A stretch of 64,000 nucleotides of DNA from Octopus sinensis. Lineage: Eukaryota. The notes beneath the pieces were generated by a model. That model searched no databases, was not told where the DNA came from, and saw nothing but the letters and a program-made list of their open reading frames with translations. This document shows positions 13,081-61,110 of the stretch, in pieces. The number at the start of each line of letters is the position of its first letter. The stretch's first letter is position 1. The DNA lies in assembly GCF_006345805.1 (NCBI RefSeq), contig NC_043020.1, positions 22,940,001 to 23,004,000 of the forward strand, in the 5' to 3' direction. Position numbers and translations under genes: made by a program.

Positions 13081-13131
13081 AGCTTCTATGGGACTAGAAC
13101 TGTTTCATTCAAATGAAATCATCAGGAGACT
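13081..13131 (-). ncRNA. Mirror hammerhead copy with damaged stem III
   Basis: agtctc CTGATGA ... GAAA cagttctagtcccATA gaagct. Confidence 0.55.
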
Positions 13132-13204
13132 TGCTGTCAAGATAAGTTTTGGCATTTATACATTTAGGCTAAATGTATAAATGCCAAAACTTATCTTGAC
13201 AGCA

Positions 13205-13255
13205 AGCCTCCTGATGATTTCATTTGAATGAAACAGTTCTAGTCCTGTAGAAGCT
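13205..13255 (+). ncRNA. Minimal type I hammerhead ribozyme motif (PLE type)
   Basis: agcctc CTGATGA tttcatttgaat GAAA cag ttctagtc ctg TA gaagct; predicted cut after 13249. Confidence 0.7.
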
Positions 13256-13601
13256 CCTTCTATAAAATAAATATATGGTCCAACCCATGCTAGCATGGAA
13301 AACGGACGCTAAACGATGATGATGATGATGATGATGAAAATGGAGAAAAACAATAGTTGGTTCATCAACTTTAGGACATTAAAATGTTAACTTATTTATT
13401 TATCAAAACGACATCCATAATAACATACATACATATAGTGTATTATTCTATGCATTTAAATTAAGAATACAAGCAATTATTAAAAAACATGAATATAAAT
13501 TATCAAAATCACTTACAGCTGTTTCAGCGAATAGATAAAAGCATCTCATTCTGCCTATATTAGCCAAGTGTATTGAGGTGATAGGCAGTTGAAAATGAGG
13601 T

Positions 13602-13643
<42 letters not shown>

Positions 13644-13668
13644 TTAATGAACACAGTATATTTTTAGG

Positions 13669-13708
13669 AACTACTAATAGTTTCATGCCTCCAAGCAATC
13701 TCCAGGCT
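13669..13708 (-). ncRNA. Hammerhead-like motif with CUGGAGA core
   Basis: agc CTGGAGA t tgc ttggag gca t GAAA ctattag TA gtt. Confidence 0.55.
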
Positions 13709-14057
13709 GTGCTCAAATGGCATATGCAAACTAAAACAGTAGGACAGAATATGAGAAAAGGTGAAAAGAAACACTGGAAAACAAAAAGAAGGAAAAAAGG
13801 GGTAGAATTAGTCGTGTCCCCTTTGACCTTAAAGCCATAATGAGGCTGAACAGGTAGGGGGTTCTTGTCTGTTGTACAACTGCTCAACTTGGAGAGGGTA
13901 GTATTTTCCAATTTTCAATTTTGAACTATACCATATGTTTACATGTGCTGATGATTTCAGATCTGAAATTCTTAGACCTGAAAAGGATCTGTGATCTTTC
14001 AGATACGCATAACTTGCAATTTTTTGTGATAGCCACACGAGTCTATGAATTCATATC

Positions 14058-14116
<59 letters not shown>

Positions 14117-14488
14117 TACTCACATACAGAGACACGCGTGCACTGAATGTACTCATGAAATATCTTCATTGATTGGATCTTCTGGATTTTCAGTTACATG
14201 GATACTCTGCATTACATTTCTTCGTTTTGGATTATTGTGTGGTCTGATAACCCAAGTCTGTTAGAGGAGCTTTCTGTGAGAGCCACACAAATTTATGAAT
14301 CCATATCTTATACTACAAATTTATATATATACACAAACATATTTTCTGCAAATGATTGCAGAATTGGTGCGTTGAACAAAAATGCCTTGTTTATCATTTG
14401 TTAAATTCTATCTGAAATAATTTCATCAGTTTCTAAATATACCTGATACATAACAAGTGTTTATTCTGTTTTCGTTGTTCTATTTCAG

Positions 14489-14590
14489 AAAAATATCAAA
14501 GAAATTCTTGATTCAAATGGAATTAAAATCCTTGTAGATTTGCTAACTTTAGCTCACCTACACACCAGCAGGGCAGTTGTTCCCTTACAG
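14489..14590 (+). CDS. DNAJC13: DNAJC13 exon ([34 protein letters not shown])
   Basis: ttcag| ... |gtaagg. Confidence 0.96.
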
Positions 14591-15139
14591 GTAAGGGCCT
14601 TAGGGTCCAAATAATTTATTGAATTTTAATTCTCTGTAATATGTAGCAGTAGGGTCTCAGGTATGCAGGCAGTGGTTTATTAGTCTATGGCTGGTCTAAC
14701 TCCAGCTCATCTACACACCTACAAGGGCAGCTGGTTCCTTACTAGTAAAGGGGTTGAGGGTTCATTTATTGATTCATTCGTTGTTAATTCTCTGTAATGG
14801 TGCAGGAGTGGCTGTGTGGTAAGTAGCTTGCTTAACAACCACATGGTTCTGGGTTCAGTCCCACCATGTGGCAGTGTCCATAGAACATGATTAACACTTG
14901 ATTTTACTGAGCCCTTATTTGTCGTTCATGACAAGAGAATCCATCAAAGAAACTTAACAGAATTGATGGAAGGGCACCACCAAGAGTGGTGCCTGTGGCT
15001 TAATTTGACTCAGGACTAACTCTAGGCACTTGGTCTAGTGGTTAGTGTCTTGTCTTAAATATGTAATAGAATATGATTTTAATTAACATTTCATCTCAAT
15101 TAGGCAATTAATGTCCTGTTCTAATTTCGGTCGTTCCAG

Positions 15140-15244
15140 AGCAATCTTCTGGAAGCTGGCGTTGACATGAAACGAGAAAGTGAAAAAGAATGGTATTATG
15201 GAAATGCTGACAAAGAACGCTTGGGACCATACAGCTATGAAGAG
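15140..15244 (+). CDS. DNAJC13: DNAJC13 exon ([35 protein letters not shown]; GYF_2-like start)
   Basis: tccag| ... |gtgagt. Confidence 0.96.
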
Positions 15245-15265
15245 GTGAGTACACTGGATCGTAAT

Positions 15266-15592
15266 ATCACCACCACCATCATCATCATCATCTTCACTGT
15301 CATTGTCATCATTGTCTTTGCTGTCAGCATCTCCATTGTATTTACTGTTATCATCACCATCATTGGCATCATCATCGTCTTCATTATCTTCATCATTTTC
15401 ATCATCATCGTCATTTTCATTGTCATCATTTTCATCATCATCATCAATTTCATTGTCATCATCATTTTCATCATCATCATCAATTTCATCCTCATCATCA
15501 TTTTCATCATCATCGTCTTCATTATCTTCATCAATTTCATCCTCATCATCATTTTCATCATCATCATTATCTTCATCGTCGTCATCATCATA
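15266..15592. repeat. (TCA)n-type imperfect trinucleotide repeat
   Basis: Direct reading. Confidence 0.95.
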
Positions 15593-16265
15593 TTTCTTTC
15601 CTCCCATCCTAACATGGATTTTGCAAGTCTGTTCCACCATAGCATGTGCATATTCTTCCATTATCCTCCTTTATCTTACACATACAACAGAAAACCCTAC
15701 GAATCTTTATTGCGGTTGTGGATGCTTTATTTTATTTTAGCGTGAGTCTTACAGTTAGCCCTCTTCCTTATCTCCAACAACTTTACAGCATAGACTGGGT
15801 GCATTTCTGAACAGTCTTAGGGGTCCCCTCATTGAATACATTCCTCACTTAGCTGAATGATGATATGCCCTGAGGTTCATGCCTGTCCTATGATAGCATG
15901 ATATCCTCCAAATATATTACCACTACACTCATGGAGTGGTTGGCATTAGGAAGGGCATCAAGCTGTAGAAACACTGCCAGATCAGACTGGTGCCTGGCTC
16001 AGCCTCCTGGCTTCCCAGACCCCGGTGGAACCGTCCAACCCATGCTAGCATGGAACACGGACGTTAAACGATGATGATAATGAATATCTTTCTCTATAGA
16101 ACAGTCTGGAAGGGTTTTCACTTAGTATGGCGAGCATTTAAAAAAATTTTTTTTGGTGACCCTTATGAAGGAGTTGGCAGGGGACTGAGATATGCAGTGC
16201 ATTGCTGTATTCGAGAAAACCTGCCTACAATAACAAAACTGAAATCCTAACACCAAGGTACTGTG

Positions 16266-16688
16266 GGATCTTTTTGGTTTGAATGGCAGTTTTTTCTAGC
16301 GGTGTCATATGAAATTGTCACCCATAATTATGACCCTAGTAACCATCTATTGCATTTCAAACTGTTTTAAAGTTAGGGTTAAGGTTAGGGTGGGGGGAAG
16401 GGTATCTTTTTTTCTTCACAAATGTAAATAAACCCAATCTGTTTCTTAAACGAGGGACATATTCATACGGCACAGAATGTTTTTTTACCTCAATGGACGT
16501 CAGTGATTGGTTGAAATTGCAGAAATTGAAGAAAAAAAACTACAAATATCTTACAAACTATATAATTTTCTCAATAAAGCCAAGAGAAAAAGATGTTTTA
16601 TAAACACATTCTACCAGTATACGAAGTTTAAAATTTTTTAGTTACCTAGAAATTATGTTAAAAACTGCCGTTCAAACCGAAAAGATCC
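16266..16688 (+). mobile_element. MITE with about 29-bp TIRs, 8-bp TSD and internal TTAGGG motifs (Merlin- or hAT-like)
   Basis: TIRs GGATCTTTT.GGTTTGAA.GGCAGTTTTT / AAAAACTGCCGTTCAAACCGAAAAGATCC; decayed TSD gtactgtg / gtaccatg. Confidence 0.85.
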
Positions 16689-16744
16689 GTACCATGAAAA
16701 AAACATTGGTGTTGATGCTGGTGTTTTGTTTGCTTGTTGAGCAA

Positions 16745-17095
16745 AGCAGTCTTCGTCCCTAGTGGGAGAAGTCCGAAACGTGGGCCTTTGCTATTCGTAA
16801 GACCCACAGAAGAGAAAGCAGGTCAACCCCCGAGACCGAGAGCATCGACAGATGGATGAATGCGCATCCAGGCTCAGCGGTTGTGTAGGAAGTCGAGGAC
16901 AAGAAACAGGAAGAAAGAGTGATAGAAAGTTGGAGCGAAAGAGTACAACAGGGGTCGCCACCACCCCCAGCCGGAGCCTCATGGAGCTTTAGGTGTTTTC
17001 GCTCAATAAACACACACAACACCCGGTCTGGGAATTGAAACTGCGATCCACCGACCGCGAGTCCGCTGCCCTAACCACTGGACCATTGCACCTCT
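16745..17095 (-). mobile_element. tRNA-derived SINE family F; second copy at about 32110-32328
   Basis: Head gcaatggtccagtggttagggcagcggactcgcggtcg. Confidence 0.75.
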
Positions 17096-17214
17096 ACTTG
17101 TGTGTGTGTGTGTCTTTGTTCCTGGCCACTGCTTGACAACTGCTTTTGATGTGTTTACGTCCCTGTAACTTAGCAGTTTGGCAAAAGAGATTAACATATA
17201 TAGATATAGAATAA

Positions 17215-17374
17215 GTGCAGGAGTGGCTGTGTAGTAAGTAGCTTGCTAATCAACCACATGGTTCCGGGTTCAGTCCCACTGCCTGACATCTTCGGCAGTG
17301 TTTTCTACTATAGCCTCGGGCCGACCAAAGCCTTGTGAGTGGATTTGGTAGACGGAAACTGAAAGAAGCCTGTC

Positions 17375-17441
<67 letters not shown>

Positions 17442-17640
17442 ATATATGTGTGTGTGTCTGCGTTTGTCCCCCTAGCATTGCTTGACAGCCGATGCTGGTG
17501 TGTTTACTTCCCCGTCACTTAGCGGTTTGGCAAAAGAGACCGATAGAATAAGTCCCGGGGGTCGATTTGCTCGACTGAAGGCGGTGCTCCAGCATGGCCG
17601 CAGTCAAAATGACTGAAACAAGTAAAAGAGTTAAAAGAGA
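17215..17640 (+). mobile_element. Family C SINE, full length
   Basis: Matches family C. Confidence 0.8.
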
Positions 17641-17819
17641 GAGAGTAAGTAACAGGCTTAAAAAAAAAATGTGTTGGGTTGATTTGTTAAACTGAAAGTC
17701 TTTGAGGCAGTGTTCCAGCATGGCCACTGTCTGACTGAAATAAGTAAAAGATAAGACACACACACACTCACACATATACCTCTTCGCTTTTCTATCTCTG
17801 TGGTTGATTTTCGTTTCAG

Positions 17820-18022
17820 ATGAAAAATCTGTGGAATGAGAATGTGATCAATGCAAAAACCCGATGCTGGGCGCAGGGCATGGATGGCTGGAGAGCGTTA
17901 CAGAATGTCACCCAACTCAAGTGGAAGCTGATGGCGACGAGTCAACCCGTCATGAATGAGACCGAACTTGCCAAACTCGTTCTCAGCATGTTGATCCGCA
18001 TCGTTGAACATTACCCCAGCAG
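17820..18022 (+). CDS. DNAJC13: DNAJC13 exon (MKNLWNE...KTRCWAQGMDGW...HYPSR)
   Basis: ttcag| ... |gttttt (weak donor, but phase fits the next exon). Confidence 0.94.
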
Positions 18023-18157
18023 GTTTTTATACTTTTCTGACCTTTCTCTTTAACCTGACCTTATCCGACCCAGATATGTTACCTGTTTTATGTTCACACC
18101 AGCCAGATCCAGCTTATCACACCTTACCTTTCAATGCCACTCTAAAAATACGCAGCT

Positions 18158-18550
18158 ACATCATCATCATCGTTTAACGTTCGCTTTCCATGCTGGCATG
18201 GGTTGGACGATTTGACTGAGATCTGGCGAGCCAGATGGCTGCACCAGACTCCAATCTTGATCTGGCAGAGTTTCTACAGCTGGATGCCCTTCCTAATGCC
18301 AACCACTCCGAGAGTGTAGTGGGTGCTTTTACATGCCACCAACATGAGGGCCAGTCAGGCGGTACTGGCAACGGCCATGCTCAAATGGTGCTTTTATGTG
18401 CCACCTGCACAGGAGCCTGTCAGCGGCACTGGCAACGACCTCGGTCGAATGTTTTTTCAGGTGCCACCTGCACAAGTGCTAGTAAGGCGATACAGGTAAC
18501 GATCACACTCGAATGGTGTTTTTAATGTGCCATCGGCATGGAGGCCAGCT
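18158..18550 (-). mobile_element. Family A copy
   Basis: Matches the family consensus seen in the window. Confidence 0.75.
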
Positions 18551-18569
18551 TCTTAAAGCTACAAAATTA

Positions 18570-19540
18570 TCCTTTCTACTATAGGCACAAGGCCTGAAAT
18601 TGTTGGGGAGGGGACAAGTCAATTACATCGACCCCAGTGTTTCACTGGTACTTAATTTATCGACCCCAAAAGGATGAAAGGCAAAGTCGACCTCAATGGA
18701 ATTTGAACTCTGAATGTAGCGACAAACGAATGCTTAGCAGTATTTTACCCGTCGATACATTCAGAGTTCAGATTCCACTGAGGTCGACTTTGCCTTTCAT
18801 CCTTTTGGGGTCGATACTGCTAAGCATTTCATCCAGTGTGCTAACTGCCGGCTCACCTTCTTAAAGCTAGAAAATAATCCTTTTTACACAAGGCCTGAAA
18901 TTGTAGGGGAGGGGACAAGTCAATTACATTAACCCCAGTGTTTCACTGGTATTTAATTTATTGACCCCAAAAGGATGAAAGGCAAAGTCGACCTTGACGG
19001 AATTTGAACTCGGGATGTAACGACGGGTGAAATACCACTAAGCATTTTGTCCAGCGTGCTAACAACTCTGCCAGCTCACCGCCTTAAAACTACAAAATAA
19101 TGTGATCTGAATGCTTAACCGTTTAGCATTCAAATTATTCTGTCAAATGTAATGTTTTTTTTCCATTCATATTGTTTTTAATTAATCTTGTAGCTACAAA
19201 ATAATGCAAGATTAATTAAAAACAAGGTGAATGGAAAAGCATTACATTTGGCAGAACAATTTGAATGCTAAAACATGCGTAAGCACATATAATAATTCTG
19301 CACACAGGTGAAGGCGTGGCTGTGTGATAAGAGGCGGCGAGCTGGCAGAAATGTTAGGACGCTGGGCGAAATGCTTAGCAGTATTTCGTCGGTCTTTCCG
19401 TTCTGAGTTCAAATTCTGTCGAGGTCGACTTTGCCTTTCATCCTTTCGGGGTCGATAAATTAAGTACCAGTTACGCACTGGGGTGGATCTAATCGACAAT
19501 AGCCCTCCCCAAAAATTTTGGGCCTTGTGCCTAGACTAGA
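18570..19540. mobile_element. Family B SINE cluster with opposed copies
   Basis: Two - copies (18570-19085) and one + copy (19331-19540). Confidence 0.75.
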
Positions 19541-19998
19541 AAAAAAGAAAAAAAAAGAGAGGTTTGCCTCTCTCCCTACCACAGGGTTCAGGGTTCAGTC
19601 CCACTGTATGACACTTTGAGCAAGTCCCTTCTGCTATAGCTTCGAGCCGACCGAAGCCTTGCGAGTGGATTCAGCAGATGAGAAATGACTGAAATCCATC
19701 AGATGTGTGTGTGTGTGTGTGTGTGATTGGGCCCTTGTTTGTCCCCAAGCACCGCTTGACAACCGGTGTTGGTGTGTTTACGTCCCCATAAATCAGCATT
19801 TCTGTGAAAGAGACTGATAGAATAAGTACCTGGGTTGATTTGTTTGGCTAAAATTCTTCAAGGCAGTGCCCCAGCATGGCCACAATCTGACAAATGAATC
19901 CAGTAGAAGATAGAAAATATGCTTATCTACACACACACACACACACTGAGGTGTATGCAAATAATGTTTTAATTAACGGTTGTCTCCCTTGTTTGCAG

Positions 19999-20083
19999 AG
20001 ATACGGACGGTGCGATCGTTCGACCACTTCCACGGGCTAAAAGATTGCTGTCTGATGCTACCTCTTTACCTCACATAGTTCAG
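19999..20083 (+). CDS. DNAJC13: DNAJC13 exon ([28 protein letters not shown])
   Basis: tgcag| ... |gtaaga. Confidence 0.95.
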
Positions 20084-20391
20084 GTAAGATTCGATCCCTT
20101 GTTGCTATTGTGTCTGTTGGTTGTTGTTGTTTAACCCTTGGTCACTCCTGATAAAATTTCAAATTTTGCCACACTGGCAAGTAATTTTGGGAGACAGGAT
20201 AAGTCGATTACTTCGACCCCAGTATGCAACTGGTACTTGTTTTATAGACCCCGGAAGGATGAAAGGCAAAATTGATCTTGGCGAAATTTGAACTCAAAAT
20301 GGAAAGATGGACGAAACGCCTCAAGGCATTGTGGCCGGCGTGCTAACGATTCTGCCAGCTCACAGCCTTAAGATGATAATAATAATAATAA

Positions 20392-20820
20392 TCCACAGAT
20401 TTGCTTGTCGACCGTAACCAGTTGAGCATGTCCCTTAGTGGCTGACGATATGTGCATCTCTGACCACGAGCAGAAGTAGTGGGAGAGCATCATAGCCATG
20501 TGTTGAGAGGAATTTCTTGGGGGTTTGAATAATTCACCTCTGGAAACATGGGTGGTTCTTTCAACATCCTTAAACAACCCTTAATCAGGGACCTTTTGAG
20601 TGAGATGGGTTACCCGACCAGAAGAAAATTCTAACTGGGCCCCACCCGCAAGGTTATGTGCTGTTTATCTTGATATGAGATCACCATGTTGCACACATAT
20701 GGTTGTGATGCATGTGCCTGGTGTACCCTTATCGGACGAGTAGTCATGATGGGTATATTGGGCTTCGTATATTTTACCCCAGTGTCACTTTGATGGCATG
20801 AACTGCTCTCTCATTCAACA
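20392..20820 (+). mobile_element. (TAA)n-associated non-autonomous retroelement family E; copies also at 39155-39600 (-) and 47620-48068 (+)
   Basis: Three closely similar copies, each abutting (AAT)n. Confidence 0.75.
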
Positions 20821-21054
20821 ATAATAATATTAATAATAATAATAATAATGGTTTCAAATTTTGGCACAAGGCCAGCAATTTCGTGGGAGTGTGCATGTTG
20901 ATTACATTAACCCCAGTACGCAACTGGTACTTGTTTTATTAGCCCCAAATGGTATTAGAGGCAAAGTAGACCTCTACATAAATATCTTTTTGTAATGAAT
21001 TCTTACAGAAGCTGATATATGTTATGTTTTTTTTTTTGTTTCTTTTGATTTCAG

Positions 21055-21255
21055 TTACTCCTGACCTTTGACCCTGCCTTAGTGGAGAGGGTCGCCATCC
21101 TTTTGTATGAAATAATGCAGGACAATCCAAATGTATCCCGACTCTATTTGACTGGGGTCTTCTACTTCATCATGATGTACACTGGGTCTAACGTCTTACC
21201 CGTTGCACGCTTCCTCAAGTACACCCATCTGAAGCAAGCTTTCCGCTCCGAGGAG
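21055..21255 (+). CDS. DNAJC13: DNAJC13 exon ([17 protein letters not shown]...[28 protein letters not shown])
   Basis: ttcag| ... |gtaggc. Confidence 0.96.
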
Positions 21256-21464
21256 GTAGGCACCATGTTAATGTGTGTTCGTGTGTGTGTAAGGGAGAAA
21301 ATTAAAAATCTGGAGCCATGTTGTGAGGGTAGGAGAGGAAGATGTGGAGCAAGGGAGATGATTGCTGGGGGGGAGAGCGACACTAGCATGGCTGTTGGGG
21401 GTTAAGTAGCTTGCTGTGCAGCCATGTGGTTTTGGGTGGATTGGCAGAAACTGAAAGAAGCCTG

Positions 21465-21493
21465 GTTTGTGTGTGTGCATGTTTGTATGTATG

Positions 21494-21547
<54 letters not shown>

Positions 21548-21592
21548 TATATATGTGTGTGTATATAAATATATATATATATATATATGCAC

Positions 21593-21625
<33 letters not shown>

Positions 21626-21678
21626 TATACATATATATATATACACACACATATATATTTATATACACATATATATAT

Positions 21679-21724
<46 letters not shown>

Positions 21725-21885
21725 TATATATATATTTTCACACACATATATATATTATATATACACACATATATACACATATACACACACACATATATAT
21801 ATTTACACACACACACATATATATATATAACATTATGTGTATATATGGATGTATATATGTATGCAAATACACATACATATATACC
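21465..21885. repeat. (TA)n/(CA)n compound microsatellite
   Basis: Direct reading. Confidence 0.95.
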
Positions 21886-22060
21886 TGCTAGGGGCTATAG
21901 TAGAAGACACTTGCCCAAGTTGCTGTGAAGTGGGACTGAACCCAAGACCACATGCTTGGGAAGCAATCTTCTTAACCACACAGCCGTATCTGCACTTGTA
22001 AAGAACCATCTATAATTTTGATGAATTGGGTGTATATATTTATATTTATTTGTATTTCAG

Positions 22061-22215
22061 AACAAAACTTCTGACATTATGCAGCGCAGTGTCATGGGCC
22101 ACCTCCTACCTGAAGCCATGGTTTGTTACCTGGAAAATTACTCTGCGGACAGATTTGCAGAAATATTTCTTGGAGAGTTCGACACACCTGAGGCAATATG
22201 GAGCAATGAAATGAG
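22061..22215 (+). CDS. DNAJC13: DNAJC13 exon ([10 protein letters not shown]...[17 protein letters not shown]; IWN repeat 2)
   Basis: ttcag| ... |gtgaga. Confidence 0.96.
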
Positions 22216-22521
22216 GTGAGATTCGAAAAAAATATTTGTCTTGCTTTGGTTTTGGGTTTTCTTTTATTCCTTTATTTCTTTCAGTCATTTGACTGTAGCC
22301 GTGCTGGAGCACCAACTTGAAAGGGTTTTATTCGAACAAATTGACCCCAGAACTTGTTTTTGAAGCCTAATACTTAGCCTGTCGGCCTCTGTTGCTGAAC
22401 TGCCAAGTTATGGGGATGTAAACACACCAACACTGGTTGTCAAGCAGTGATGGGGATGACAACAAACAAACACACAAAGGCACACATACATAGATATTCA
22501 TATATATACATACATACATCT

Positions 22522-22781
22522 ATCTATCTGCTCAGTCGAAGTCAACTCTCAGTCACTTGGATCAGTGTCCTCAGTCAGTTCTATCCTGGGCCGCTTCTTT
22601 CAGACTGGCTATGTCCATTCCAGTTTCCCTCTTGTTGGTGTCAAGCCAGCGGGTTCTTGGACGGCCTCTTCCTCTCTTGCCACTGACCATTCCGAGCATG
22701 ATGTCCTTCTCCAGGGATTTTCTCCGCATAATACGACCGAAATATGCCAATCTATGCTTGGTGATCCTAGCTTCTAGCAAC
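22522..22781 (-). mobile_element. RTE LINE 3' end
   Basis: LEARITKHRLAYFGRIMRRKSLEKDIMLGMVSGKRGRGRPRTRWLD; acatacatacatct repeated on both flanks. Confidence 0.85.
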
Positions 22782-22909
22782 ACATACATACATCTCAATT
22801 AAACATAAGGATAAAATCTATATAAGATTTTATCGAGTAGCCAGCATGTAAAAACCAATTAAGGAAAAAATTAATACAAAGTATGTAATTTTTTTCCCCA
22901 ATTATGTTT

Positions 22910-22968
22910 GTACTGATGAGTGGAGAACATGGTAATACATGGTAACCACAAAACCATTAATGGAATAT
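22910..22968 (+). ncRNA. Decayed hammerhead motif
   Basis: gta CTGATGA gtgg..ccac AAAA ccattaatgg aa tat; GAAA and the cleavage triplet are mutated. Confidence 0.5.
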
Positions 22969-23217
22969 GACTAAACCTTTTTTTATTGAAGGAGTTTCTC
23001 CTAGTTTTGTTCCCTCGAAGTCAGCGTGTGTGTATACTTATTGAAGTAGTTTGACTTTAGAGTCCCATTAAAGCCTGTGGCTTTACAGTGTCAGTCTACA
23101 ACTAAACAATCACATCTTCAAAATCTTGAGGGTACAACAGGATAATAAAGGATGTGAATGAATTTGTTGTGAATGAATAAGCTTTACAATTGTTAGAGTA
23201 ATCTGAATTCTAAAAGA

Positions 23218-25447: not shown

Positions 25448-25484
25448 GTCAGTATTTGCAGTGACTCTTCACCTACACAGCCTT

Positions 25485-50241: not shown

Positions 50242-50926
50242 GTAAGCTCATTATTTCCTCAACTCAGCTTCAGCCCACCATCTTCTTAGAGTTTAAATGT
50301 ACTAGTCATATGCTGGGGGTCAATGATATCAACTGTTCATCCTTCCTCCTTCAAATTTCTGGTCTTGTAACCCCACCCACTTTTATTTTTAGAAACCATT
50401 ATTGCCTAATGGCAGCATAGGATCTAATCCCTCCACTTTATTCATCTTCTAAAAATAGAAGCCTAGCTAATCCTTCCTTAGATTAAATAAGAAAAGCATT
50501 AACCTTCATTTACATTACAAAAAAAATTTAAAAAAAGAAATTATTTAATCCCTTTTACATTAAAAATACAAAACTAAACCCTCTCTTATTTTTTATCTTT
50601 TACTTGCCTCAGTCATTAGACTGTGGCCATGCTGGGGCACCACCTTGATTATGCCGAATATACTCCTTTGTCACTTCCATTATAGCTTTGAAAAAATATG
50701 TTAAACTCGAGTTGCACTCTTCAAAACTTGCACTATGAATAAGTTCAAGATAAAATTACTACCTGCTTGTATAGCATGTTGCTGCAGGTAGTTTATCCTG
50801 TTCCCTTCCAACTTTTAGTTCATGCAATTGAAAAAAAAAAACTGCATTATTTATGGGATGACTTGAACCTGAAACCATGCGGTTACATAGTTAGCTCCTT
50901 AACTTTCTTAATTTTGTGTTCTTCAG

Positions 50927-51001
50927 GTCATCTGCTGATATTAGAAAGTTTGTTTGCTTTGATGTCAAACACGAAAATTGTGAAAGAAGCTTTATCGAAA
51001 G
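50927..51001 (+). CDS. DNAJC13: DNAJC13 exon (HLLILESLFALMSNTKIVKEALSK)
   Basis: ttcag| ... |gtttgt. Confidence 0.94.
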
Positions 51002-51297
51002 GTTTGTACACAAGCTTTATATTTACGTTTCACCATTTCCAAAATGCCATTTTTTGATGGCATAAAAGACACATGGGCTATTTAATTTAGGTGCACCCTG
51101 CCCAATTTCAGCAGCACATATGCTGGGAGAAAAGGATTTTTATGTATTAACTCATTCGTTACTGCATTCCTAACCAAATTACACTCCTTATTATTATTTC
51201 TCTCCTTTGGAAATTTCAAATTGGTAATAAATCCCTTATCTTTTTGTCTGTGATTGGATTACAATTTGTATTTAACATAAAAATATCCTTTTTTCAG

Positions 51298-51498
51298 GAG
51301 CCCTTGTATATTTATTGGACCTGTTTTGCAATTCGGTGAATCCGTTGGTCCGAGAGAAAACCTCGGAATTATTTGCAAAAATGTTGAGCGATAAATTAGT
51401 CGGCCCTAAGGTGCGGATTATTCTAGCCAAATTTCTTCCTAATATTTTCATGGATGCGATGCGAGACTCTCCTGAAGCAAGTGTACATATGTTTGAAG
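51298..51498 (+). CDS. DNAJC13: DNAJC13 exon ([12 protein letters not shown]...[10 protein letters not shown]...[17 protein letters not shown])
   Basis: ttcag| ... |gtaaga. Confidence 0.96.
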
Positions 51499-53244
51499 GT
51501 AAGACCATGTAAAAATTACCCCGTTTTTTTAAGCCCTTCACTCTGTTGTCGTCATCATTGTCCAACGTCCGCTTTCTATGCTAGCATGGGTTGGACGGTT
51601 CAACTGGGGTCTGGGAAGCCAGAAGGTTGCGCCAGGCCCAGTCAGATCTGGCAGTGTTTCTACGGCTGGATGCCCTTCCTAATGCCAACCACTCCATGGT
51701 GTAACCCTAAATAAGTGGTCAGCTCTGACCAAATTTTGATGACCCTGACCTCATTTGTTTGTGTTTTGGAGTGGTTGACAAGTCCTTTTTTTGCCAAGCT
51801 ACTGTCATAGAGACATTCCATATATGACAATCCTGTCATCTGGGATGTAGATATTGTCAAAGTACATCATCGAATATGTACTTCCTTTTCTTTCTTTTTT
51901 TTTTTTTTTAAATTTAAATGTCAGAGAGTGATTTGAAAGATTTCAGCTACTATTTCTAGCAGGTGAACATCCATGTAAAGCAGTGGTTCCTCCCGGCGAC
52001 GCGTTGTGTCCTTGAGCAAGACACTTTATTTCACGTTGCTCCAGTCCACTCAGCTGGCAAAAATGAGTTGTACTTGTATTTCAAAGGGTCAGCCTTGTCA
52101 CTCTCTGTGTCACGCTGATTATCCCCGAGAACTACGTTAAGGGTACACGTGTCTGTGGAATGCTCAGCCATTTGCACGTTAATTTCACGAGCAAGCTGTT
52201 CCGTTGATCGTATCAGCTGGGACCCTCGTCGTCGTAACCGGCGGAGTCTTTAAAATGGGATCAATATGGCCCTTGCGGGGTCCATAAAAGATTTTGTTGT
52301 TAAAATTTCATCATCATCATCATCGTTTAATGTCCGTTTTCCATGCTAGCATGGGTTGGACGGTTCGACCGGGGTCTGGGAAGCCAGGAGGCTGCACCAG
52401 GCCCAATCTGATCTGGCAGTGTTTCTACAGCTGGATGCCCTTCCTAACGCCAACCACTCCGAGAGTGGGTGCTTTTTACGTGCCACATCTCGGTAACTTA
52501 GCAGTTCGGCCAGAGTAAACGACAGAATAAGAACCAGATTTAATAAAACGTTTTTTTTTTTTGTTTGGTTAAAAAACTGTCTCAGGTGGTGCCCGAGTAT
52601 GGCCACTCCAATGACTGAAACAGCTAAGACAACACGATAAATGGATATCATTCACTTGCCATGCTGTTATGACATTCATAGATTGTTTGTAGAAAACTGG
52701 TCATGGAATAGAACCCTCGGCTGCATTTGAAACCGGATCATAAGGGATTGTAAGCAAACACCACAAGGTATTTGTGGATTTCCACGCCAATCAGCTGAAA
52801 ATATTTTGTCCAGGGCGATAACTCTAATGAAGAATGCCAGAGTAGCCTCCCCTGAAATATTAGCGCCAATGGGAGAAACAGGCGTCAGTTCAGTTCACGT
52901 TAAGAAATAGATGCATTTGATATAAGGACGTGATAGCCGTGGCTGGAGAGACTTTGATCGTAGGTTTGCTGCTTAATCTACGCATGAAACATATATCGTG
53001 TGCGTCTGTCTTTTTTCATGTTTGTCATTGGACTGCGCCCATACTGGGGCACTTGCCTTGGGTGGTTCCAGTCGAACAAATCCACCCCAGTACCCGTTTT
53101 TTTTCTTTTTAAAGCCTGGTACTTAATCTATTGGTCTCTGCTTTTTCTGAATCACTAAGTTGAGACGTAAACAAACCAACACCAGTTGCCGAGCATTGTT
53201 GGGGAGATAAAAAGGACATAGGACACAATGTGTGTGTGTGTGTG

Positions 53245-53308
<64 letters not shown>

Positions 53309-53473
53309 TTAATCAGCCGAAATTGCGAGGATGATCCGGTTCTTGACTGAAGATTAGGGGCTTCGAATGACCTGTCCGTTTTTTGTGTTGTCTATTCGAA
53401 TGTTTTGCGTTCCTGTCCCATTTTGTATTTTTATATATATTTTGATATATATATATATATATATACATACACA

Positions 53474-53508
<35 letters not shown>

Positions 53509-54433
53509 TCATTTTTTTAACTTCCATTTTTTCCATGTCTGTATGGGTTGGATGGAGTTTATTGAGGTAGATTCTCTATAGCCAGATGCCCTTTTTGTCT
53601 CCAACTCCCACCAGTTTCCACATAAATAGAATTATTCCATACAACCAGACATGTTTCTGTAGAAGATTTGAAATCAAGGCAAGAAGACAGTAACACACAC
53701 ACACATATAATTGATGGAGTTCTTTCAGTTTCCACTTATCAGATCCACTGACAAGGCTTTGGTTAGCCTAATCCAAATAGTCAAGTTCAGCTAGGATGCA
53801 TAAGAGCAGTGATATTGTTAAGTATTAATAATTAGCTTCAAGGGTGATGTCGTCATCGTCATCATTGTCGTCGTCATCATCATCCTCATCAACCTCTCAT
53901 GTCATCTCAGCCCACTCTTGTGCGTACTTCACCCTGTGCTACACCTGAATCTACAACCAAAAACACTTACTCAAGGTACCATGCACTGGGATTGAACCTT
54001 GCGAGCCGCCTTTCTTTATTGTGAAGGACCATACTTGTGGATTATGGCAGTGGTGGCATCTGTTCTAGGTGATGCTTTGCGGGGGAAGCTCTATTGGGTC
54101 TGCTGTGTAAACCTGTATAGAGGCCTGGAGTCCCAGGTACCTGTGAGGGGAGGACAAAACTCAGTAGCTGCCCTAGGTGTTATATGTTCTAGCTACTCTA
54201 CTGAACCCTTGTCATACGTGCAGACATTTAAAAACAGTTATATAAACACATGCATTCATTCACCAATACACAAACACCTACAGACACACACATACCAATA
54301 CACACACTAAAACATATTCTTAAACATATGCACCTATAAAGATGCATTAAACACAAGAATACAGGCACGCACGCACATAAACACGTACATTGTATATACA
54401 CTTAGTGAACTGCATGTATATTTCTATTTTCAG

Positions 54434-54515
54434 GAACACACGAGAACCCAGAGTTAATCTGGAATGATGACGCCAGGGAGAAAGTCTGTGACTTAATCAA
54501 GAAACTTAAAGCTCA
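54434..54515 (+). CDS. DNAJC13: DNAJC13 exon (THENPELIWNDDAREKVCDLIKKLKAQ; IWN repeat 4)
   Basis: ttcag| ... |gtaagt. Confidence 0.95.
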
Positions 54516-54573
54516 GTAAGTAATTATACATGCATATGTGTGTGTATATATATATTTTCACCCTACACATTGC

Positions 54574-54623
<50 letters not shown>

Positions 54624-54870
54624 GTTGTGGTGAGCTGGCTGAATTATTCACAAACTGAATGAAATGCTTAGCAGTATTTTGCCCATTGCTATGTTCTAAG
54701 TTCCAATTCTTCCGAGGTCGACTTGGCCTTTCGTTCTATCAGGGTAGATAATGCTAATAATATAGCGTGAACAGGATAAGCTATCCCTATTTTGCAGTAA
54801 AAAGTGTTGGCGGCCAGCTATATATATTATATATATATATATTATATATATATATATATAATATATATAT

Positions 54871-54933
<63 letters not shown>

Positions 54934-55091
54934 ACTAATGTAGGATAAAATTATTTTCGGGAAAAAAATACCTTTAAAGGTTAAATTTATAAATAATTTA
55001 CAAGATAAGGGCAAAAGAAAAATTCTAATGCCAAAAAAAATTGTCAATAACCATTATAATTTATGTCTCAAAACAAACCAATAGAAATTTC

Positions 55092-55131
<40 letters not shown>

Positions 55132-55279
55132 CAAATTGAGATAGGGGTTGTAAATGCAACCCTCCATGGGATAACATATATCCAAAATACTGCTAGTGGT
55201 GGTTTAATAAAGTATGTGATTGAGTATTATCTGGTAATTGATATTTGATTTAGATGTATTTCTCCATTTTCTTATCTTG

Positions 55280-55339
<60 letters not shown>

Positions 55340-55974
55340 ACATACGCACACACCGTCATTTAATGTCCATTTTCCATGCTGGCTTGACAGGAACTAGCAA
55401 GTTCAGGGGTCATCCCTGGTTTAATTGTCTGTCTTGACTTGGTTTCTACAGCTGAAGTGAAGACACATGGCTTAGTGGTTAAGGTATTCAGCTCATGATG
55501 ATAAAGGTCATGAGTTCAAGTCCTGGCAGCATGTTGTGTCCTTGAGCAAGACACTTTATTTCACTTTGCTCCAGTCCACTCAGCTGGCAAAAATTGAGTA
55601 GTACCTGTATTTCAAAGGTCCGGCCTCGTTACACTCTGTGTCATGCTGAATCTCCCTAAGAATTACATTAAGGGTACAAGTGTCTGTACAAGGCAGTGAA
55701 CTGGTTTTAAGGCGGCGAACTGGCAGAATCGTTAGCACTTATTTAATCGGGGTCAATTAAATAAGTACCAGTTACGCACTGGGGTCAATATAATCGACTT
55801 AAACCATTTGTCTGTCCTTGTTTGTCCTCTCTGTGTTTAGCCCCTTGTGGGTAGTAAAGAAATAGTACAAGTGTTTGTGGGTTGCTCAGCAGCTCTTTTC
55901 TACAGCTGGATGCCCTTTCTAACCACTTCACAGAGTGTTCTGGGTGCTTTTTACATGTCACCATCGCTAGTGCT

Positions 55975-56016
<42 letters not shown>

Positions 56017-56044
56017 ATGTATGTATTGTCTTTTTCTATTGCAG

Positions 56045-56261
56045 ACATTATCGTGCCCAAAGAGACAACCCTGACACCAGATGGAGCCTCCCAGATGACT
56101 TTGCCATGGTTTACTCTGACGTGCAGGGAGAACTTGCGATCGGAGGTGTCTTCTTACGACTGTTCATTGCAAATCCCAGTTGGGTCCTACGGAAGCCTAA
56201 GGAATTTCTGACGGAGCTAATGGAGAAATGGGTTCGCCTTATTGAAGATAGATCCCCAGAT
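56045..56261 (+). CDS. DNAJC13: DNAJC13 exon (HYRAQRDNPD...GELAIGGVFLRLFIANPSWVLRKPKEFL...DRSPD)
   Basis: tgcag| ... |gtaagt. Confidence 0.96.
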
Positions 56262-56329
56262 GTAAGTTCCTTTCACTTTCCTTTTACTAGTTCCACTTAT
56301 TGAACTGGGGTCATTGTTGTGGGGCTGGG

Positions 56330-56490
56330 CTGTGTGTGCATCACTCATGTTGTGGGGGTGTGTCACCTTCATGCTGGAGGATACACCATGTTGTTGAGTG
56401 TCGCCTTCATGTTGTCAGGGGTGTCACCTTCATATTGTTGGAGGTGCTACCTTCATGTTTTTGAGTGTCACCTTCATGTTGGTGGGGCAC
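56330..56490. repeat. About 23-bp minisatellite (gtgtcaccttcatgttg)
   Basis: About six units. Confidence 0.8.
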
Positions 56491-56999
56491 CAGTTTCAAA
56501 CACACTATGTAAAATACATTGATTTATTGTGTTATGACATCACTACTGTGATAGCTTACTATATTATGGCATCACTACTGTGACTTCTTAGCTGTGTTAT
56601 GACATTGCTACTGTGACCACTTACTGTATTATGATATCCTTACCACGGCATCTTACTACTTTGTTTTCATAGACACACACTCTATACTTTACTGTGTCTT
56701 GTGACAGCACTTCAGTTCATTATTGAATTAGTCATTGTCTATTGTCCTATCAAACGATAATTATAATAATTAGGCAACAATGAAGCCTCTACATCACAGC
56801 CTGTAAAAAAAATAGCAGCCAAATTCCACAGGTAACACCCATCTTTTTAAAAGTCCACATTGCATCATGTATTCATAGATACTCTGTCTGGAGAATGAAA
56901 AGAAGACAGGTTAGTCATGGTTGGAATGCCTTTGAGTATAGTTCAATTTGCTCAGGGCCAACCTGGTGCTAAACCACATCATCATCATCATTTAATGGT

Positions 57000-57450
57000 C
57001 ATTCCTCGAGGAATGTGAAGACGCAGGCTGGAAAGCGGAACATTTTCCTATCGAAGTCGGATGTAGAGGGTTTGTTGGACACAGTGTGAGATGACTGTTG
57101 TTATCGCTAGGCCTAACTCATCGTAAAGTCAATACCACCATGACCGATATCCAAACTACAGTGGAGAAGGCTAGCCACTGGATTTGGTTAAAAAGAGACG
57201 ATGAGCGATGGCTAGAAGGATATTGAGCTTAACTTCATAACCAGCTGATCTAGCAAGCGGGGCCTCATATCAGTGAGGGGGGGGGGCGCATTGATGCCGT
57301 CGAGAGGTAGGCCCTGAAACGGTGCGCATTCTCTCCTGATGACCCCATACACTTGCTGGCTTCCGGTATACGGAGCTTTCGACTGGTAGCACTTGCATGT
57401 GCAAGTTGTTTGCAAGACATCATGCTGGCATGAGCAGTGCTTTATTAATT
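57000..57450 (+). mobile_element. HERO-like (restriction-like endonuclease) retrotransposon 3' end with structured 3' UTR
   Basis: FLEECEDAGWKAEHFPIEVGCRGFVGHSVR*LLLSLG...EKASHWIWLKRDDERW, stop at about 57226. Confidence 0.8.
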
Positions 57451-57497
57451 GATGTATTTTTCTTTGATGTTTATATTTTTCCTGTTATTCTACACAG

Positions 57498-57677
57498 GGT
57501 GAAATTTTGGAGACAGTGACGATGGCACTGGTGTGCCTATTCCAATCACAGGTTGGGTTACTCGACCAAGTCCCTGGCCTTGGCTACATTCCCCATATAT
57601 TCCAAGTGATGCATGCCAAAAACCCAGCTATACCCAAATCTGCCATTCAAATTCTTCACCAGCTGAGCAATAGTGAG
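57498..57677 (+). CDS. DNAJC13: DNAJC13 exon (GEILETVTMALVCLF...AIPKSAIQILHQLSNSE)
   Basis: cacag| ... |gtaagc. Confidence 0.96.
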
Positions 57678-57907
57678 GTAAGCAACATTCTCTCTCTCTG
57701 GTTGACTCTTCTGATTGATTCTTCTTTCATGTATGACAGTATAACATAAACTTAATTAGTTGACGAATTACGAGTAAAGTTCAGTTTTCTCTCTGACATG
57801 TTTTTCATATCTAACATTATGACACGTAGAGTATGTCTAATATATATATGACACCTTTCTTCACAACTCAGATTTTAATGACAACACTATCTGCACATCT
57901 TAAGATC

Positions 57908-58333
57908 GGATCTTTTCGGTTTGAACAGCAGTTTTTCTAGCGGTGTCATATGAAATTGTCACCCATAATTATGACCCTAGAATCGATCTATTGCATTTCA
58001 ATCTCTTTTCGGGTTAGGGTTAGTTAGGGTTAGGGGTTGGGGAAGGGTATCTTTTTTTCTTCACAAATGTAAATAAACCCAATTCTTAAACGAGGGACAT
58101 ATTCATACAGCACAGAATGTGTTTTTTTTACCTCAATAGACGTCATTGATTGGTTGAAATTGAAGAAATTGAAGAAGAGAAAACAACAAATATCTTACAA
58201 ACTGTAGAATTTTCTCAATAAAGCCAAGAGAAAAAGATGTTTTATAAACACATTCTACCAGTATACGAAGTTTAAAAGTGTTTAGTTACAAAGAAATTAT
58301 TTTAAAAATCTGCCGTTCAAACCGAAAAGATCC
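57908..58333 (+). mobile_element. Same MITE family, full length
   Basis: Both TIRs present; no TSD evident. Confidence 0.82.
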
Positions 58334-58491
58334 CAACACTCTCCTCACATCTTAGTGAATGAGAAAACTTCATTACATCTTAGTTTTATGACAAAACTCT
58401 ACTAATATCTTCCAGTATTCTGACAATACACTCTTTTACATCATCACATGTGTTAGTTATCTCTCCCCTCTGTTACCTTCTTCTGTTGCAG

Positions 58492-58632
58492 TTATGTATA
58501 CGGAGCATGGGCTCAATAGAGTGTATAGGCTCTCTGAAAGCTGGCATGAAGACTCGTAAAGATATGATCGTATATGCTGCTGAGAGCTTGGCCAAAATGT
58601 TTGAGAAAGGCGAAGAGGAACTTGTTTCACAG
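58492..58632 (+). CDS. DNAJC13: DNAJC13 exon (LCIRSMGSIECIGSLKAGMKTR...EELVSQ)
   Basis: tgcag| ... |gtttgt. Confidence 0.95.
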
Positions 58633-58702
58633 GTTTGTATTTGTTTCTCTGTTTCACGTTGTTGTACTGCATCATAATACGAAGATGGAATGGGACTCAG
58701 TA

Positions 58703-59155
58703 GTCATCATCATCATCATCGTTTAACGTCCGTTTTCCATGCTAGCATGGGTTGGACGGTTCAACTGGGGTCTGGGAAGCCAGAAGGCTGCACTAGGCTC
58801 CAGTCTGATCTGGCAGTGTTTCTACGGCTGGATGCCCTTCCTAACACCAACCACTCCGTGAGTGTAGTGGGTGGTTTTTTACGTGCCACCTGCACAGGTG
58901 CCAGACGAGGCTGGTAAACGGCCACGATCGGATGGTGCTTTTTACGTGACATCGGCACAGGTGCCAGCCGAGGCTGGCAAACGGCCACGATCGGATGGTG
59001 CTTTTTATGTGCCACCGGCACGGGGGCCAGACGAGGCTGGCAAACGGCCACTATTGGATGGTGCTTTTTACGTGCCTCCGGCATGGGGGCCAGGCAAGGC
59101 TGGCAAACGGCCACGATCGGATGGTGCATTTTACGTGCCACCGGCACGGAGGCCC
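58703..59155 (-). mobile_element. Family A copy with about 62-bp internal tandem array
   Basis: Four or more tandem units. Confidence 0.8.
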
Positions 59156-60469
59156 ACTTTAGTAACCTTGACCCAGGGGTGTATATCATCGCATAAGATT
59201 GGTTTTTGTGGTTAAGAAGTCTAATTTGCAACTGTATAACTTCTGGTTTGGTCTTGCTTCGCAGCACTTTGCAGAGATATTCCCTAATCTTGGATCTGCA
59301 AAAACTGCTTTTATTATTAAAATATCGTTGACGGAAACTGTGATACGTATGTATATGCATGTGCGTGGGCGCACGTGATGCCAAAGGGAGTTAAATTGCG
59401 GCAGTGAACGAAAATACCGCCTTGTAGTTTGATCACTAAGTTATCTCCCTTTACATCTAGTTATCTGTATTCATCCCGTCGTCTCAGTCACTGCAGGCTG
59501 TGGCCATGCTGGGGCACCACCTTGCAGGATTGGTTGAAGAAATCAACCCCAGTCCTTGTTTAAATTCGGTACTCATTCTCTTGGTTCCTTTTGTGGAACT
59601 ACTAACTTACAGGGATGTAAACAAACCAACATGGTTACATACTCACACAAACACCCACACCCACGATCTTCTTCCACTCAGTTTCTGTCTACCAAATTTA
59701 CTTAATGGGACTATTAGTAGAAGATACCTGCCCAAGGTGCTGTAGACGGAAACTGAAAGAAGCCCGTCGTATATATAAATAGTGTGTGTGTGTGTATGTT
59801 TGTGTGTCCGTGTTTGTCCCCCACAACATTGCTTGACAACCGGTGTTGGTGTGTTTATGTCCCTGTAACTTAGCAGTTCGGCAAAAGAGACCGATAGAAT
59901 AAGTACTAGGCTTATAAAGAATAAGTCCTGGGGGGGTTGATTCGCTCGACTATAAGGCGGTGCTCCAGCATGGCCACAGTCAAATGACTGAAACAAGTAA
60001 AAGAGTAAATATATATATATATATATATGTATGTGCGCACACACATACAGTATTTTTCCACACAGCTTCCATCTACTGTGTTTGTGGAGGCGCGTGGCTC
60101 AGTGGTTAGGGTATTCGGCTGACAATCGTGAGGTCGTGAGTTCAATTTCTGGCAGGACATTGTGTCCTTGAGCAAGACACTTTATTTCACATTGCTCCAG
60201 ACCAATCAGCTGGCAAAAATGATTGGTACCTGTATTTCAAAGGGCCAGCCTTGTCACACTCTGTGTCAAGCTGAATCTCCCCGAGTACTACCCAAAGGCT
60301 ACACGTATCTGTGGAGCGCTCAGCCACTTGCACATTAATTTCATGACCAAGGTCTAGATCAACTGGAACCCTCATTGTTGAAACCAACAGAGAACCAGTT
60401 TCTCTTGTCCTTGTCTCTCTATTTAACCTGTCTGTCTCTTATCCACCTCAGTCTACCCTATTTCTTGTC

Positions 60470-61110
60470 TCTCTTACTCTTTTACTTGTTTCAGTCATTT
60501 TTACTGTGGCCATGTTGGAGCACTGCCTTTAGTTGATCAAATTGACCCCGGGACTTATTCTTTGTAAGCCCAGTACTTATTCGATCGGTCTCTTTTTTGC
60601 CGAACCAGCATTGGTTGTCAAGCGACGCTAGGGGGACAAACACAGACACACATATATATATATATATTGTTTTGGTGTCTCACTATGCCACATACGACTA
60701 TGAGGATTTACCTTCCTAATGTAACTCGCTTTTTTTCCCAAACTTCTTCTCAAACCTGCTATAATGTAATACATGTCTTTGGTGTGGTAATTGTACACAG
60801 CTGAAGAAGGCTGTTGACCTATCTGTTATATCAATTATGCATTGATATAAATTGCTCAATAAAGCCAGAAACATATGTACCGCAAAATCCTTTGCATCCT
60901 GTTTTTTCTTTTGATAAATATATATATATATATATACAGATATACGATAGGCTTCTTTCAGTTTCCGTCTACCAAATCTACTCACAAGGCTTTGGTTGGC
61001 CTGGGGCTATAGTAGAAGACACTTGCCCAAGGTGCCACACAGTGGGACTGAACTTGGAACCATGTGGTTCGTAAGCAAGCTACTTACCACACAGCCACTC
61101 CTGCGCCTAT
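60470..61110 (-). mobile_element. Family C SINE with a PLE pseudo-LTR inserted in its (TA)n
   Basis: SINE halves flank 60665-60920. Confidence 0.75.
60798..60882 (+). ncRNA. Hammerhead motif with extended stem II
   Basis: cag CTGAAGA a ggct..[ttatatcaat/attgatataa hairpin]..agcc a GAAA catatg TA ccg. Confidence 0.7.

Follow-up and report, generated by a model that had tools for sequence, protein, structure and literature searches.

The 64,000-nt window of Octopus sinensis DNA analysed here (contig NC_043020.1, positions 22,940,001 to 23,004,000) covers part of a DNAJC13/RME-8 gene, in the introns of which an earlier reading of the letters (hereafter the sequence-only reading) had listed ten minimal type I hammerhead ribozymes and two half-motifs. 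According to an exon map made by tblastn with two homologues (about 30 exons each), every one of the 14 motif sites that we tested is intronic, and two GT..AG junctions on the + strand, 56261 to 57498 and 57675 to 58490, are present in contigs from four probable RNA runs; Pfam and PDB searches with the host exons and the endonuclease piece of the window were uninformative. The joint explanation that we consider likely is that the sequences at 53306, 49540 and 57252 have in common a conserved hammerhead fold of rearranged strand order, which we call the split-core permuted hammerhead, and that the listed motifs are ends of retroelements and likely inert. The copies at 57252-57357(+) and 49540-49628(-) had been overlooked by the sequence-only reading. 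All features are collected in Table 1, in which positions within motifs follow the hammerhead core numbering (H17, A9, G10.1, 3-8 pair).

Table 1 Features of the window, with hammerheads as predicted from cores and pairing strands.
Feature	Position	Strand	Details
DNAJC13/RME-8 host gene (part)	796..63180	+	homologue names, tblastn exon map, spliced contigs
F13 insertion	12986..13276	.	inverted arm 13064-13167 with extra tail and direct arm 13169-13272; (TA)n or TA ends
Type I hammerhead, F13, stem III damaged	13081..13131	-	antisense to host gene
Type I hammerhead, F13	13205..13255	+	core intact, U.U at stem II base, 4-bp stem III; predicted cut after 13249
Repeat 3' end, GAAA/stem III half only (13509-13528)	13336..13535	-	
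Old type I hammerhead	13669..13708	-	A6 changed, loop II mostly deleted; CUGANGA kept in other copies
Old type I hammerhead, F22	22908..22970	+	G12 and U16.1 changed here; family consensus canonical
5'-truncated Hydra-type Penelope-like element	27584..31105	-	endonuclease piece 30547-30993, long AT-rich 3' region
Type I hammerhead, F27	27696..27738	-	core intact, U.U at stem II base, stem III palindromic
Classical minimal hammerhead, F36	35992..36037	+	extra A after A9, G10.1-C11.1; within repeat 35956-36092
Minimal hammerhead variant, F41	41007..41042	+	core position 6 is U family-wide
Minimal hammerhead variant, F43	43448..43484	-	A3-U8 for C3-G8, 2-bp stem II; Neptune-type 3' end (43385-43538)
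Type I hammerhead, F46	46393..46437	-	core intact, C.A at stem II base; repeat 46337-46545
Split-core permuted hammerhead, subfamily B	49540..49628	-	3'-truncated just before CUGANGA block
Split-core permuted hammerhead, family A, 5'-truncated	53306..53393	+	GAAA block 53314-53326, helix a strand 53333-53339, stem I strand and core 53341-53353
3' end of 5'-truncated long interspersed nuclear element (LINE), restriction-like endonuclease	57003..57421	+	reading-frame tail 56999-57223
Complete split-core permuted hammerhead	57252..57357	+	predicted cut after C57301
Type I hammerhead, F60	60798..60882	+	core intact, long loop II, A.A at stem II base, stem I damaged; repeat 60667-60944

In the split-core fold, a helix d strand, hairpin e, a stem II strand from G10.1 and a helix a strand are followed by a stem III strand that leads through U and H17 into a stem I strand, then by a stem II strand, GAAA and a stem III strand, and finally by a second helix a strand, a stem I strand leading into CUGANGA and the second helix d strand. 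The break in the chain lies between A9 and G10.1: helix d is formed by the strand behind A9 with a partner far upstream, and hairpin e sits between this upstream strand and G10.1. The copy at 57252 consists of the helix d strand (57252-57262), hairpin e (57263-57278), the cut-site block (57293-57306), the GAAA block (57310-57324), the stem I strand plus core (57331-57342) and the helix d partner (57343-57357). At the site near 53300, which had been taken for half of a type I motif, GAAA stands upstream of CUGAAGA; its family has 1725 candidates, the full copies of which reach further 5', and the window copy, which has lost the cut-site block and the 5' strand of stem II, is a 5'-truncated permuted hammerhead instead. 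The other half-motif, at 13509, did turn out to be a GAAA/stem III half, namely the end of a repeat, and a full core is found in other elements sharing that end. Twister, pistol, HDV-like (hepatitis delta virus) and type II/III layouts were rejected for the 53300 site by eye once its stems I-III were seen to covary.

A profile search, together with another search of the genome for which a diverged copy served as query (1511 candidates), yielded 66 near-full copies in five groups (30, 2, 32, 1 and 1). Between the subfamilies, which were found by similarity of sequence alone, both sides change in four crossing helices, namely the three stems (I, II, III) and helix a, and the core is constant with variation only at N7 and H17. 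The core columns of the homology-found copies (30 of family A, 32 of family B) are 0.84-1.0 conserved, and H17 is C, A or U in the homology-found families wherever the cut-site block is intact. Background rates were determined in 100 stretches of 10 kb over the chromosomes, i.e. in 1.0 Mb of the 2.72-Gb genome. In this sample, the split-core descriptor gave 9 hits with a score of at least 17, one of them a false positive in coding sequence, compared to 0, 3, 0, 0 and 0 hits in shuffles. Intact-core copies thus number 8 per Mb, or by extrapolation about 20,000 genome-wide. A descriptor for the split-core order also turned up further families and the complete window copy at 57252. Some of its hits were discarded as likely false positives, namely those within coding sequence of a different LINE (L303, L376, L411) and two single ones (L331, L354). 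At L322, where other repeats intervene between a Neptune frame and the family B copy downstream of it, no link was counted.

The complete copy of the window lies in the tail of a LINE, and in this LINE family (2121 candidates) the motif starts about 25 nt past the stop codon. The parent LINE, which we take to be HERO-like, encodes an N-terminal zinc finger, a reverse transcriptase (RT), a CCHC knuckle and a restriction-like endonuclease in one frame; Pfam gave no match for its C-terminal part. Relatives occur in fish, amphioxus and molluscs, and none was found on viral contigs; for a transposon protein of this genome, the nearest named relative is from Octopus bimaculoides (87%). Two bacterial assemblies contain LINE fragments (L497, L498), but the contigs in question are very short and probably eukaryotic contamination, and these hits were left out. 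HERO-type LINEs have the same domain set, and neither a hammerhead in their 3' untranslated region (UTR) nor head-to-tail joins were found in the literature searched.

The location in the LINE tail made a prediction based on place alone, which was assessed on 80 related metagenome loci, 58 of which contain the end of the frame and at least 200 nt behind it. The fold was found in 40 of these 58 3' UTRs, in 0 of 290 shuffles and in 0 of the 58 reverse strands, and several of the 18 fold-negative tails look by eye like decayed copies. The descriptor matched none of three further LINE pieces in the genome (L275, L326, L393), nor did it match a diverged copy (L264) of F57, the LINE family of the window. 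Although the descriptor accepted any Watson-Crick pair at this place, 31 of 33 non-redundant motifs have G10.1-C11.1. Helices d and e, which the descriptor did not use, reach a score of at least 13 in 25 of 31 motifs compared to 5% of flank shuffles. In a sequence-only alignment of 19 motifs of similar length (17 from the metagenome and 2 from octopus, with the structure taken from the first row), both sides change in 19 of 22 pairs, and 89.8% of the cells pair compared to 35-49% with slid partners.

Permuted hammerheads are known from Eckert et al. 2023 (PMC10085705). With the types SGC and CSG described there, the split-core fold shares the reversed cyclic block order, the short linker between stems I and II and an extra helix tying the far ends of these two stems. 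The motif could be an ordinary type-SGC hammerhead that forms stem II from the strand behind A9, with the upstream strand being incidental: the order S, G, C and the helix joining stems I and II are indeed those of type SGC, and two hits of octopus family E have a stretch rich in G behind A9 for which wobble pairing with the GAAA-side strand is feasible. However, type SGC has its stem II strand right after CUGAnGA, and a 4-bp Watson-Crick partner for stem II directly behind A9 exists in 1 of 32 LINE motifs compared to 27 of 32 with such a partner upstream, where 11 starts were allowed; with 11 starts downstream the count is 3 of 32. As, in addition, covariation ties the upstream strand to its GAAA-side partner and helix d takes up the strand behind A9, we regard this explanation as very unlikely. 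In PMC10085705, CUGAnGA and the stem II strand form one unbroken block by stated assumption, whereas in the split-core fold this block is opened and two helices enter there.

Several observations weigh against the split-core reading. The window copy at 57252 has G.U at 10.1-11.1, and its helices d and e do not exceed shuffles (47/100). Among ten octopus representatives, these helices stand out clearly in five, marginally in two (7/100) and not in three, i.e. the window copy and two others with 22 and 59/100, and one suspected false positive beat its shuffles (0/100). Minimum-energy folds, which are blind to pseudoknots, often favour other pairings, and the pairing of stems I-III is partly circular in the sets picked by the descriptor because the descriptor required it. 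Finally, no Naiad frame (N-terminal GIY-YIG, C-terminal RT) stands beside a split-core motif in the octopus loci examined. Weighing these points against covariation, controls and the LINE-tail result, we hold that the split-core fold is very probably real.

Helices d and e would hold A9 beside G10.1 without a backbone link, and the fold would cut itself after H17 as a single molecule, with no partner needed. In our estimate, the split-core fold probably does cleave itself. It could also be real and non-cutting, in which case its hammerhead shape would serve the RT for binding or as a signal to initiate. The predicted cut is spanned without interruption by all 30 LINE copies that were examined, with the shared sequence ending 77-84 nt past the core (one of the copies being the reference), and there is no clear pile-up of 5' ends at the cut: family A copies have their 5' end there in 0 of 6 cases in the random sample and in 5 of 39 elsewhere, the latter set being query-biased. 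A cut in the 3' UTR would moreover harm plain target-primed reverse transcription, and for a lizard Penelope-like element the hammerhead is dispensable for insertion in vitro (PMC11167929). On the other hand, none of the catalytic bases is lost and G is never found at position 17, which the descriptor demanded in the metagenome set but which also applies to the homology-found families where the cut-site block is intact. The fold moreover seems to be shared by elements with two unrelated types of protein, LINEs and, to judge from published consensus ends, Naiads. A fold without cleavage thus appears rather unlikely to us.

In the LINE, a cleaving split-core fold would cut head-to-tail transcripts into unit lengths. 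Because the copies span the cut unbroken and stop 77-84 nt past the core, it is likely that reverse transcription has an internal start and would pass over the cut on a template that is rejoined, circular or an uncut tandem. This resembles Penelope-like elements, for which copying from an internal start across the rejoined end has been proposed (PMC4209133) and internal initiation shown in the case of the lizard element (PMC11167929). In 7 of 18 loci with at least 400 nt downstream (6 metagenome, 1 octopus), the LINE tail runs on into its own N-terminal frame; an eighth match to this head-to-tail pattern was spurious. Such joins also fit uncut tandem templates or collapsed assemblies, and the cut-and-rejoin cycle is a tentative proposal to which we give somewhat less than an even chance. 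At one octopus locus (L359, G000:C12:24299085-24302224), the LINE tail is directly joined to a 5' UTR with short, repeated GAAAGAC-like words and then the N-terminal frame, and such words also follow the tail in several metagenome loci. Another locus (L355, G000:C8441:1-2735) consists of about ten tandem units of about 158 nt, each combining the end of the LINE frame with the 5' portion of a split-core motif and stopping just past GAAA, followed by one complete 3' end.

Naiads were reported to lack canonical hammerheads; 'HHR_core' and 'HHR_half_core' sequences were flagged, and the half-cores came without a structure in the parts available (Craig et al. 2021, PMC8557442). Two octopus Naiad consensus 3' ends from the supplement of that paper, when read by eye, show the split-core order, and it is these published ends that suggest a Naiad parentage of the split-core families A-H. 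The (TA)n targeting and 5' truncation of Naiads (PMC8557442) are likewise shared with the families described here. Among the 41 supplement ends viewed, five nematode ends read as type CSG and most others, over the stretch covered, as neither form; these five, out of 12 in one set, have an unbroken core block and covarying stems by eye. Natural type-CSG sequences numbered only two in PMC10085705, where the SGC and CSG forms were found only in metatranscriptome or metagenome data, bar one bacterial candidate. With somewhat less than an even chance, the split-core fold is a widespread self-cleaving hammerhead of animals, is the ribozyme thought missing from Naiads and is shared with a LINE clade, in which cutting and rejoining of the RNA would let a protein-coding LINE be copied from a circular or head-to-tail template. 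The bivalve and hemichordate ends in the Naiad supplement share a structured motif directly past the stop codon, with a possible resemblance to an HDV-like ribozyme.

We did not find the split-core fold in the open-access literature searched or in Rfam, and 20 split-core loci gave no hammerhead match in Rfam at a permissive E-value; a 2026 retrozyme preprint, as far as available, treats type I. The fold would break the assumption that the CUGAnGA block is uninterrupted, and non-circular permutations would move from metatranscriptome oddities to about 20,000 copies in one animal genome. The split-core order would also explain why descriptor searches found Naiads without hammerheads. Besides a direct test of whether LINE RNA is processed in the manner of Penelope, the fold offers dozens of natural covarying sequences for structure work and cleavage assays.

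Regarding the ten type I motifs of the sequence-only reading, hammerhead-like sequence is present at all ten sites, but only four copies have both core and stems intact and four are damaged (13081, 13669, 22910 and 60798), the typical members of their families being intact in alignments of the best copies. The ten sites represent nine families, because 13081(-) and 13205(+) are the two arms of a single inverted repeat (13064-13272). A relaxed type I descriptor, which demands a perfect core and tolerates one extra base or one mismatch at the stem II base, picks 13205+, 27696-, 35992+ and 46393-, each with a score of at least 10, compared to a mean of 0.07 such hits in 30 local dinucleotide shuffles of the window; the strict descriptor finds no site, or one if a mismatch at the stem II base is allowed, and Rfam gave no hammerhead match in the window at E<=10. 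The complete type I order of CUGANGA, GAAA and UH is present in the four window copies and in the consensuses of F13, F22, F27, F36, F46, F60 and the 13669 family. Contrary to the earlier claim of CUGANGA at every site, F41 and F43 carry variant cores, with CUGUYGA at 41006 and AUGAAUA at 43448, and position 4 is C in part of the family at 46393.

Could all these motifs be chance matches in AT-rich, repeat-rich DNA? If one core mismatch is tolerated, low-scoring hits are indeed frequent in shuffles (4.9 per shuffled window at a score of at least 4), and the strict descriptor gives none. Shuffles of window and genome, the LINE-tail test and covariation speak against chance, as do the family consensuses, which restore the damaged copies. 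The likelihood of this explanation is negligible, and the excess over chance asserted by the sequence-only reading was borne out.

The families are dispersed through the genome, with first-look candidate numbers of 914 (F13), 31 (13669 family), 46 (F22), 2142 (F27), 2909 (F36), 558 (F41), 1381 (F43), 1661 (F46) and 1502 (F60), which are lower bounds; 31-40 candidates were scored in each, with a query bias. The ten motifs are likely 3' ends of dispersed retroelement copies. The idea that they mark ends of Penelope-like elements was confirmed by a protein link for F27 and F43. The F27 element of the window is 3.5 kb long, 5'-truncated, with an endonuclease piece, (TA)n on both sides and the motif at its 3' end; it carries an inverted 3'-end piece with a tail at 30978-31105 and sits in the (TA)n stretch of a short repeat. 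In 2 of 30 loci, the F27 motif is followed downstream by the start of an RT that has KWK and DKT motifs, both of which fit the Hydra clade as described in PMC8557442. A Neptune-type frame with RT and GIY-YIG, the latter scoring above cut-off, occurs in 9 of 25 F43 loci and ends 316-352 nt upstream of the motif on the same strand in 8 of 25. A repeated protein link is missing in the other seven of the nine families, which tells against the same origin for them: protein hits at F13, F22, F36, F41, F46 and F60 occur in 0-2 of 25 loci each. Their membership in the Penelope-like elements is nevertheless likely, judging from inverted pairs or (TA)n ends.

Inverted pairs occur in 0-8 of 25-30 loci per family, with none in F41, and (TA)5 or longer is found within 300 nt in 27 of 30 (F27), 20 of 25 (F13), 20 of 25 (F43) and 17 of 25 (F60) loci, compared to 0 of 25 (F36), 4 of 25 (F46) and 5 of 25 (F22). 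What remains after 5'-truncated insertion is the end that carries the ribozyme, in many cases as an inverted pair within (TA)n. According to the published model, the type I motif of the parent element would cut tandem transcripts as a dimer; in co-folding, a stem III dimer formed only with the 43448 copy, and most others paired otherwise. Direct pairs of the same family are found in 0-4 of 25-30 loci, the window copies are solitary, and none of them shows the tandem array with a hammerhead per unit that marks non-LTR retrozymes. Four tandem units of about 228 nt with an F36 hammerhead in each at another locus (L132, G000:C27:14648862-14651984) are retrozyme-like. An F46 copy elsewhere (L063) adjoins a probable HSP90 coding exon.

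Thousands of heterogeneous, mostly solitary minimal hammerheads across animal genomes were reported by Cervera and de la Pena 2014 (PMC4209133), and by themselves the listed motifs are an octopus example of this class. Like the Penelope-like pseudo-LTR (long terminal repeat) hammerheads of that paper, they have a short stem I, a stem III that is palindromic or absent and many unrelated families per genome, and they share the extra base between A9 and 10.1 (F36, F41), the mostly solitary occurrence, the inverted pairs and the link to a Penelope-like frame. Unlike there, as far as the paper was available, four families have U.U, A.A or C.A at the stem II base, and the cores include family-wide A3-U8, U6 and C4, the paper reporting U3-A8. 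Among the aligned copies, 25 of 29 in F43 have AUGAAUA, with A3-U8 replacing C3-G8, 23 of 27 in F41 have U at core position 6, and 10 of 31 in F46 have C at position 4. U3-A8, C6, U10.1.U11.1 and a 2-bp stem II have been described as natural variants, in part as active ones (Perreault et al. 2011, PMC3088659; for U3-A8 and C6 see also PMC4209133); A3-U8 and U6 are not named in the available text of that paper. The A3-U8 core was not found in the open-access literature searched and may still be covered in core-variant papers outside that search. Since A3-U8 cores show no excess in the random sample (1, compared to 1-3 in shuffles), the F43 family is what the claim stands on, and it provides a natural test case for the 3-8 pair. 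Core variants are common in this genome. The sample also contains 7 type I cores with U3-A8 compared to 0-1 in shuffles (loci L407, L391, L401, L273, L398, L293) and 6 with C4 compared to 0 (loci L414, L302, L289, L274, L315).

The same sample contains 30 intact-core type I motifs with a score of at least 10, compared to 0-2 in five shuffles, which extrapolates to about 80,000 genome-wide. This number exceeds the 2,000-9,000 per genome in PMC4209133, with the reservation that the descriptors differ and this genome is larger; for a squid genome, 235 hammerheads were listed (PMC6962438). The large and diverse repertoire proposed by the sequence-only reading is thus present, but it is not new, such sets being known from PMC4209133, and the window is not enriched with 4 motifs per 64 kb compared to 30 per Mb (P=0.13).

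The proposed embedding in pre-mRNAs applies to half of the sites: 13205, 22910, 35993, 41006 and 60798 are on the strand of the host gene, but the other five listed sites are antisense. This leaves the question of whether active intronic ribozymes act on the host pre-mRNA. Five listed motifs and the complete split-core copy are on the transcribed strand, 13205 and 57252 retain every core base, and the 4-bp stem III of 13205 might act without a partner. Yet the prediction for 13205 is a hairpin with its inverted arm (about 100 bp, -172 kcal/mol), none of the five sense-strand motifs has a partner of the same family and strand among the listed sites, the copies at 22910 and 60798 show damage, that at 41006 is of the U6 type, and 35992, though intact, lacks a partner. 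Moreover, single minimal motifs showed no cleavage and dimers weak cleavage (PMC4209133), the intron with 57252 is spliced normally in the contigs of 4 of 4 runs, and the motif density is that of the genome background. We therefore consider an action on the host transcript improbable, and the listed motifs are likely inert passengers in the DNAJC13 introns.

The near-perfect inverted repeat at 13064-13272 should, by prediction, give the pre-mRNA a double-stranded stretch of about 100 bp, a possible substrate for A-to-I editing; none was seen there in the assembled contigs, which cannot exclude editing. The window further contains, at 46743-47210 (-), the C-terminal piece of another LINE RT frame, which we assume to be RTE-like, and three tandem 246-nt copies at 36391-37128, just 5' of an exon.

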